A stretch of DNA of 37,273 nt, from positions 1-37,273 of the forward strand of contig NW_021836849.1 in assembly GCF_006345805.1 (NCBI RefSeq), in the 5' to 3' direction. Position 1 is the stretch's first letter; each line of letters opens with the position of its first letter. Shown one piece after another: positions 24,820-26,043 of this stretch. This stretch comes from Octopus sinensis. Taxonomy: Eukaryota. The notes under the pieces were generated by a model, which searched no databases, was not told where the DNA came from, and saw only the letters and a program-made list of their open reading frames with translations. A program made the position numbers and the translations under genes.

Positions 24820-25431
24820 TAAGGAAAAGCCAGTTTTGATTGGTGGAAAATTGAACTACGAAATATTGTTCCTTTAGGTCTAATCCGAAGACTTCATAAA
24901 AACGCAATTTCTCTAGGATTAAGTATATTGGAAGCGAAATTAAATTTGCTGCGTTGCGCCGATGCTAGCTCGGTTTTGTCTGTGAGTGTTTTTAAGAGAT
25001 ATAAAAGAATCTATTATGATGACCAAACAGAAGTGCAGCAACAACTGCAGCTGTCAAACTACACACCACAGGAAAAGCTAGATGGTTATAAAGTTTCTTT
25101 CCCAATTATGGGATCCGGTGAGGTATCACCACGCGCAGTATCTCGAGTTTTAGCTGTAGATCATAGTTCCATGTGGACCCAAGCCGCGGGAGTGAAAATG
25201 GGTAGATGAAAACTCTATGGTAGCACATGAGGAGAACTATGCCAAGTCCTCACTGACACGTTTAGTGCTACTTACCCTACCCGAGGATTGCATTAACAGT
25301 ATAAACCTCCAGTCATCCACTCATTTGTAAATATAAATATATACTCTACTAAAAGATACCGAGTAATCCTTTAGTTTAATGATGAATTGTTTATGTATAT
25401 ATATATATATATATATAATATATATATATAT

Positions 25432-25861
25432 AATGATAAATCTCAGAGCGAGTTATAAACAGTAGTAGCAACACATCGTGACGTATATTTGCCATTTGAA
25501 TATGGCTAACCTAAGGGTGGATGCTACTGTAGTTTGTAGCCCCAGGAGGACACCTCCTCCAGCTGGCTATAGACACACTTTCTGTGCCCTATCAGTATTT
25601 GCGAAGGGAAGCCATCCTTCCCGACTTCAACTTATGATACACACGGACTCGAATTTCAGGGTATTGACCCGTCATCGGCGTGTGACAATCATAGTTGTCG
25701 ATGAGAAGTCGGTTCCCTTCACAAATACATATACTTTTTCCAGTATCGAATGACACTGATATTGAAAAAGTGAAATCAAACAATGATAAATCTCAGAGCG
25801 AGTTATAAACAGTAGCAGCAACACATCGTGACGTATATTTGCCATTTGAATATGGCTAACC
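25432..25861 (-). mobile_element. 350-bp unit with 80-bp direct terminal repeats and a central hammerhead (retrozyme-like or Penelope-like pLTR)
   Basis: 25432-25511 and 25782-25861 are identical except for one base (agtagtagc/agtagcagc). The left end abuts (TA)n. Confidence 0.8.
25635..25692 (-). ncRNA. Type I hammerhead ribozyme motif with variant core CCGAUGA
   Basis: CACACG-CCGAUGA-C-GGGU(CAAU)ACCC-U-GAAA-UUCGA-GUC-CGUGUG. It has a 6-bp stem I extended past an internal loop, a 4-bp stem II, a near-palindromic stem III and a GUC triplet. Confidence 0.75.
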
Positions 25862-25924
25862 GAAAGAAGACGCACACTCCAAGATGTAGAGCAGTAAATA
25901 TTAAAAATGGGGAAAGCCGGTTTA

Positions 25925-25987
25925 TGGGATTACCTTAGGTTTTCTGTGCATAAAGGGTTTTGATTTATGACGTATCGTCAGATCCCA
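25925..25987 (-). ncRNA. Second type I hammerhead motif, imperfect
   Basis: UGGGAU-CUGACGA-...CAUAAA(loop)UUUAUG...-GAAA-A-CCUAAG-GUA-AUCCCA. Stem I is a perfect 6 bp; there is one extra A after GAAA and the base of stem II is mismatched. Confidence 0.65.
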
Positions 25988-25989
25988 AA

Positions 25990-26043
25990 ACCTGTTGGCC
26001 CATGACCTCCTCCATATTTTTAAGAGGTCATGGACCAACAGGT
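25990..26043. repeat. Terminal 20-bp hairpin
   Basis: acctgttggcccatgacctc / gaggtcatggaccaacaggt (one mismatch, 14-nt loop), abutting (TA)n. Confidence 0.9.

Follow-up and report, generated by a model that had tools for sequence, protein, structure and literature searches.

The window analysed here, a 37,273-nucleotide stretch of an Octopus sinensis contig, contains what is very probably a 5′-truncated 1.2-unit copy of a non-LTR retrozyme from a dispersed non-coding family, likely put into a (TA)n tract by the RT and GIY-YIG activities of an autonomous Penelope-like element (PLE). Retrozymes are a known class, and this family is an added member with unusually clear insertion evidence; it is best read as a moderately old, abundant, non-autonomous and PLE-dependent retrozyme. 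The suggestion in the initial annotation that the family was undescribed holds within the reach of our literature search, which returned no description of it.

The features of the window copy are collected in Table 1. The direct repeats, their period and the minus-strand hammerhead recorded in the initial annotation were all confirmed, with a hammerhead descriptor giving one match in the window and none in 200 block-shuffled windows, while Rfam gave no hammerhead match in the window either at the gathering score or at E-values up to 10. The period of 350 nt is particular to the window copy, which is 2 nt short near position 25510 compared to the 352 nt of most full units in its subfamily. The longest ATG-initiated reading frames in the concatenated unit encode only 57 a.a (minus strand) and 83 a.a (plus strand). 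Folding of the 430-nt redundant copy gave a z-score of −6.2 and that of the 350-nt circle −6.0, the rod in the latter being capped by the ribozyme; the plus strand folds nearly as well (z-score of −5.9), so this measure does not choose the strand.

Table 1. Coordinates of the retrozyme copy and of the adjoining older repeat in the window.
Feature	Position	Strand	Remarks
(TA)n tract at the RNA-sense 3′ end	25392..25431	.	Likely target and primer
80-bp repeats	25432-25511 and 25782-25861		Spacing 350; identity 79/80, mismatch at 25466
Complete unit of 350 nt (352 nt is typical)	25432..25781	-	Non-coding; GC 43%
PLE-type tail between two fixed 3′ start sites	25432..25474	-	Used by 40/82 and 29/82 arms; one site per arm in two-arm insertions; unit position ~1 corresponds to 25432 or lies 3 nt beyond, and position 44 corresponds to 25475
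Conserved hairpin domain between ribozyme and tail	25464..25589	-	Candidate RT-recognition element (putative); portion common to the more distant subfamilies
Rod extending stem I	25595..25728	-	Compensatory changes between subfamilies in inner helices
Type I hammerhead (U4C core; stem III short and palindromic)	25640..25684	-	Predicted cut 25646/25645
Hammerhead stem I	25684-25679/25645-25640	-
Hammerhead core CCGAUGA	25678-25672	-	U4C variant
Hammerhead stem II	25670-25667/25662-25659	-	4 bp
Hammerhead GAAA	25657-25654	-
Hammerhead GUC	25648-25646	-	Stem III of 2 bp, closed by a palindromic loop
Partial second unit (80-bp redundancy)	25782..25861	-	Ends at a variable 5′ truncation
2-nt microhomology, 5′ junction to older repeat	25860..25861	.
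Older PLE-type 3′-end remnant (family Y)	25860..26043	-	Lacks the distal 22 nt
Degenerate hammerhead of family Y copy	25926-25986	-	G12 changed
Short inverted arm of family Y copy	26010-26043

A search with the 430-mer returned 2929 first-look candidates (not a copy number; 40 candidates were scored in this and in each other DNA search), among which full-length matches were 93–98% identical to the query, and a query limited to the rod returned 1970 candidates on the same footing. More distant subfamilies, with periods of ~345–362 nt, gave 3353, 2741 and 3107 first-look candidates. Copies are spread over many contigs, and the closest relatives of the window unit are 97–98% identical to it. This bears out the earlier description of a small, non-coding unit of the retrozyme class with a type I hammerhead, which both forms tandems and is dispersed. 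We also noted a young related subfamily (L262-L285; 96–98% identical) with a period of ~360 nt, a tail of ~59 nt, and a hammerhead-like motif that, read by eye, combines a U3-A8 core with a palindromic stem III. Contigs from four sets cover the unit, although three of these sets are only presumed to represent RNA and contigs cannot show strand, ends or level.

The ribozyme of the window's subfamily carries a variant core and is otherwise conserved. A type I hammerhead is found in each unit. At position 4, 58 of the 61 rods from this subfamily have C, while the other subfamilies mostly have U (among 13 aligned copies of greater divergence, 12 have the canonical U4). Across 23 aligned copies of the window's and the next subfamily, the core residues A6, G8, A9, G12-A15.1 and U16.1 were retained in every copy, and 92.6% of cells were paired, compared to 35–48% in slid controls. 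Double changes were observed in 11 of 63 pairs, lying in the rod, stem II and the stem III palindrome, with the covariation mostly reflecting one split between the two subfamilies. The nested pairings proposed to extend stem I stand as a rod kept by compensatory changes, with the exception of ccgacttc/gaagtcgg, which is perfect only through a private base at position 25624 that differs in 60 of 61 rod sequences; the conserved helix in this region pairs in a shifted register.

The evidence that bears most directly on mobilization comes from the ends of the insertions, which we mapped in 82 de-duplicated arms from 60 loci. The RNA-sense 3′ ends fall at unit positions −7 to 8 in 40 arms and at 43 to 52 in 29, with 13 elsewhere, placing the two fixed sites 43–46 nt apart. 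A query internal to the unit, and so free of selection for ends, gave a similar picture (20, 20 and 8 of 48 arms at site ~1, site ~44 and elsewhere, respectively), and the same two 3′ ends occur in a second subfamily that is 70–83% identical to the window's. Of the 69 fixed 3′ ends, 58 adjoin a (TA)n tract, compared to just seven of the 5′ ends of those same arms. The 5′ ends are spread around the whole unit, giving arms of 22 to 2530 nt, and 35 of the 69 fixed-end arms exceed one unit and go on into unit sequence, reaching 7.2 units. A cluster of 5′ ends at unit positions 78–84 (6/69, including the window copy) lies at a hairpin base and is partly an artefact of the end of the first query. 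At the cut site (unit positions 210–218), three of 69 5′ ends were found compared to ~1.8 expected, noting that both queries select against copies stopping there; one arm (L086) is compatible with a 5′ end at the cut. The initial annotation implied circular permutations with free ends. Given that the 3′ ends are fixed at two sites, with the other end representing 5′ truncation, free permutation does not describe the copies, and in the window the redundancy of 80 bp corresponds to the overshoot of a 5′-truncated arm.

Many insertions comprise two inverted arms. Of the two-arm junctions examined (n = 29), 19 join the two different fixed sites, same-site pairing was never seen, and another start is involved in the remaining 10; thus, all 19 junctions with both arms at fixed sites are mixed. 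After removing duplicated loci, 16 mixed junctions remain, with a probability of ~1e-5 that 16 of 16 would be mixed by chance. Two further loci pair both fixed sites when inspected by eye but were not counted among the 19, one being scored as other due to an inserted fragment (L007) and one having lost an arm to the overlap filter (L075).

This end anatomy matches the tail and internal-initiation signature of PLEs, namely a tail bounded by two fixed 3′ ends and present at one end alone, an inverted 5′-truncated second copy, partial tandems, and a (TA)n bias. Craig et al. (preprint and PMC8557442) describe PLE copies with partial tandems, an inverted 5′-truncated copy, a 30–40 bp tail on one end, and a bias for (TA)n. 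In the anole PLE PAc (PMC11167929), RT initiates internally at two sites that bound the tail, and both strands of AT-rich DNA are cut. Mobilization by a Penelope-like enzyme, as previously suggested for this unit, is accordingly supported by the insertion anatomy (two fixed 3′ ends, (TA)n, and inverted arms). Two observations sit less comfortably with PLE dependence: the tail of 43–46 nt is longer than the quoted 30–40, and 13 of the 82 arms start away from the two fixed sites.

Under the PLE-dependent mechanism that we propose, a PLE enzyme would nick (TA)n on both strands, and each nick would prime cDNA internally on the RNA, at unit position ~1 and at position 44, at microhomologies ending in AU. 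The RT would then pass the ribozyme site and continue beyond one unit on a template with no end there, before halting at variable points, with the arms joining each other or the target; the 80-bp redundancy would reflect such an overshoot of one arm rather than a permuted start. The template itself may have been a circle, closed by host ligation after the hammerhead had cleaved as a dimer, or a tandem transcript that had stayed uncleaved. The (TA)n tract was presumably in place before insertion; neither an empty allele nor a target duplication was obtained, and most of the left flank is single copy.

Around the window copy, the (TA)n recorded in the initial annotation flanks the left end only, and the right end joins another repeat. 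This is an older PLE-type 3′-end remnant (family Y; 1818 candidates), whose tail is ~60 nt and whose ends are of the same style as those of the retrozyme unit; long family Y copies contain a decayed GIY-YIG-like frame, recognized by eye. The family Y copy in the window is 89% identical to its relatives (best 92%), compared to 97–98% for the retrozyme unit and its own, making a nested insertion of the retrozyme into the (TA)n end of family Y likelier, judging from these identities, than a template jump to it. The window copy is thus more probably a 5′-truncated 1.2-mer inserted where this older PLE-type remnant ended in (TA)n. Directly left of the tract lies the end of another dispersed repeat (25325-25391; 39 weak matches), and the three repeats appear to share the (TA)n tract at 25392-25431.

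Read-through past the cut site, which seven of the 69 fixed-end arms pass at least twice, indicates a template without an end there, i.e., a religated circle or an uncleaved multimer. Terminal redundancy is expected from PLE-type RT on any template longer than one unit, whichever of the two it was. We give nearly an even chance to the first, in which tandem transcripts self-cleave as hammerhead dimers and are ligated to 352-nt circles, around which the PLE RT rolls from the two fixed sites. Arms running across the cut site and past one unit fit this reading, as do the conservation of the core, rod and stem III palindrome, and the cost of the active hammerhead fold, which when forced is 6 kcal/mol above the minimum-energy fold of the circle. 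Palindromic helix III and dimeric cleavage have been described, and more-than-unit copying of circles has already been proposed (PMC4209133), while the mussel retrozymes of 350–390 nt give abundant circles (PMC7229834). Several points weigh against circles, including the U4C change in 58 of 61 rods, which is reported to lower activity in vitro (PMC3088659), and a G5A core change in the longest array. In vitro, ribozyme cleavage is dispensable for the anole PLE, with unprocessed RNA being the dominant substrate (PMC11167929), eight of nine Xenopus retrozyme dimers were uncleaved (Li et al. 2026, 10.64898/2026.07.22.740005), and Naiads that lack a hammerhead also form tandems (Craig et al.). The longest array (L023/L024, G000:C2:197248011-197250548) comprises 7.2 near-identical units, and we considered it as proof of rolling-circle copying; this was rejected, as every rod-covering unit in it shares the G5A change and the array could have arisen by local amplification.

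These same objections all count in favour of an uncleaved linear template, which we regard as a serious possibility without thinking it probable. Here, a deletion derivative of a PLE pLTR would be transcribed through genomic tandem arrays, with the uncleaved multimer serving as the template and the ribozyme being weak or vestigial in the window's subfamily. The redundant parts within arms differ at 94 of 2821 bases (3.3%), compared to 4.1% between insertions, which does not require a single circular template and, equally, does not discriminate a circle from a linear multimer. The linear reading must also account for a core, rod and palindrome that have been kept across subfamilies 20–30% apart; together with canonical U4 in nearly all of the distant copies, these features point to selection acting on the function of the ribozyme within the lineage.

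An ordinary pLTR, i.e., a 3′ end repeated internally in some autonomous PLE, with the copies that bear its ORF having gone unsampled, would combine fixed ends with attachment to a PLE ORF. The ends are indeed fixed and built as in PLEs, but no attachment was found, and we consider this explanation improbable. By tblastn, there was no contiguous ORF in 90 family loci and the window, nor a contiguous PLE frame in 48 loci of two further subfamilies. The 5′ flanks of the 24 arms scored as single lacked shared PLE sequence, except for one locus with a duplicated 58-nt fragment. Comparison by BLAST over 125 PLE loci (566 kb) revealed no DNA shared between an autonomous PLE and the unit, the strong matches and most of the weaker ones from a profile search across 152 PLE loci proved on inspection to be separate insertions of the family, and alignment of the last 110 nt to five PLE families indicated no likeness (p of 0.1–1.0). 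PLE ORFs beside family copies are, where read out, set off by (TA)n tracts, and apparent chimeric co-insertion with PLE RNA at three loci (L093, L012 and L068) was rejected as (TA)n separates the elements. Also difficult to reconcile with a pLTR are the many arms longer than one unit that return to unit sequence rather than entering an ORF. In its favour, PLE families were sampled only in part, with 40 candidates scored per DNA search, such that an ORF-bearing parent, if rare, may have escaped. Copies permuted at random from a circle are very improbable, and so is a local duplication or satellite, as although 5′ ends are distributed around the whole unit, 69 of 82 3′ ends lie at two sites and the copies, with thousands of first-look candidates, are dispersed over many contigs.

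No autonomous PLE among the loci compared shares DNA with the unit, and the helper PLE that would supply the RT and GIY-YIG in trans is therefore a putative one. The genome contains several apparently intact RT-encoding PLE families (775–811 a.a), with GIY-YIG detected by Pfam in two. Two of the autonomous families have two 3′ ends ~30–40 nt apart at (TA)n, one with a clear hammerhead. We further noted an apparently recently active Neptune-type PLE (L135-L164; 775 a.a, copies up to 99% identical), with a hammerhead ~500 nt after the ORF that is mostly U4C and canonical U4 in some more diverged copies. The 3′ UTR of an 811-a.a family (L220-L225) displays a tail of ~40 nt and, by eye, a possible minimal U3-A8 hammerhead. 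Other hammerhead-bearing repeats were seen at L226:2300-2560 and L102:6950-7020, one within a long inverted repeat.

Among known systems, the unit most closely resembles the metazoan non-LTR retrozymes (PMC7229834; Li et al. 2026), which share its small size, GC content below 45%, non-coding tandem unit, type I hammerhead, and short palindromic helix III, with the mussel retrozymes (350–390 nt; PMC7229834) also close to it in length. At some loci, the family has at least two consecutive ribozyme units, while the window copy carries one. The subfamily differs from these retrozymes in its U4C core, and its cleavage and circles are only predicted. Mobilization of non-LTR retrozymes by PLEs has been proposed in both sources, although two fixed start sites and two-arm inversions, the main evidence here, are not mapped in their available text; Li et al. 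2026 found such families in Xenopus to have pLTR homology in 24 of 57 cases, whereas none was found for this unit. With EN+ PLEs (Neptune-type with CxxC linker; the Poseidon element PAc of Anolis, PMC11167929), the unit shares a tail between two initiation sites and on one end only, an inverted 5′-truncated arm, partial tandems, an AT-rich or (TA)n target, and a hammerhead upstream of the 3′ end, but it has no RT or GIY-YIG frame, is only 352 nt in its entirety, and has a tail of 43–46 nt. Non-autonomous Chlamys PLEs such as MRC1 (PMC8557442) are likewise non-coding PLE dependants with pLTRs and head-to-tail multicopy insertions, though these generally resemble their autonomous family at the 3′ end, a likeness for which our comparisons gave no match. 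Plant LTR retrozymes, as summarized in Li et al. 2026, are also non-coding hammerhead retroelements, with circular RNA intermediates, but have a type III ribozyme, true fixed-length LTRs, PBS/PPT, and 4-bp target duplications, in contrast to the type I ribozyme and copy-to-copy variation in repeat length of this unit.

So far, PLEs have been linked to the mobilization of animal retrozymes through co-occurrence and through similarity to pLTRs. In this family, which has no ORF, the insertions themselves bear the tail and the two-arm signature of PLEs, tying a retrozyme to internal initiation of the PLE kind. The unit is also a defined substrate of 352 nt with two predicted priming sites, and the genome that contains it encodes candidate helper ORFs that appear intact. 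More tentatively, the family may belong to a long-lived clan of viroid-sized circular RNAs in this genome (at least four subfamilies, with periods of ~345–362 nt and canonical, U4C and U3-A8 hammerhead cores), which would have lost all sequence likeness to the helper and hijack its RT by structure alone, with both (TA)n strands primed at two fixed sites on the circle. If true, this would be direct genomic evidence of how the circles of animal retrozymes retrotranspose, with the exact priming sites named.
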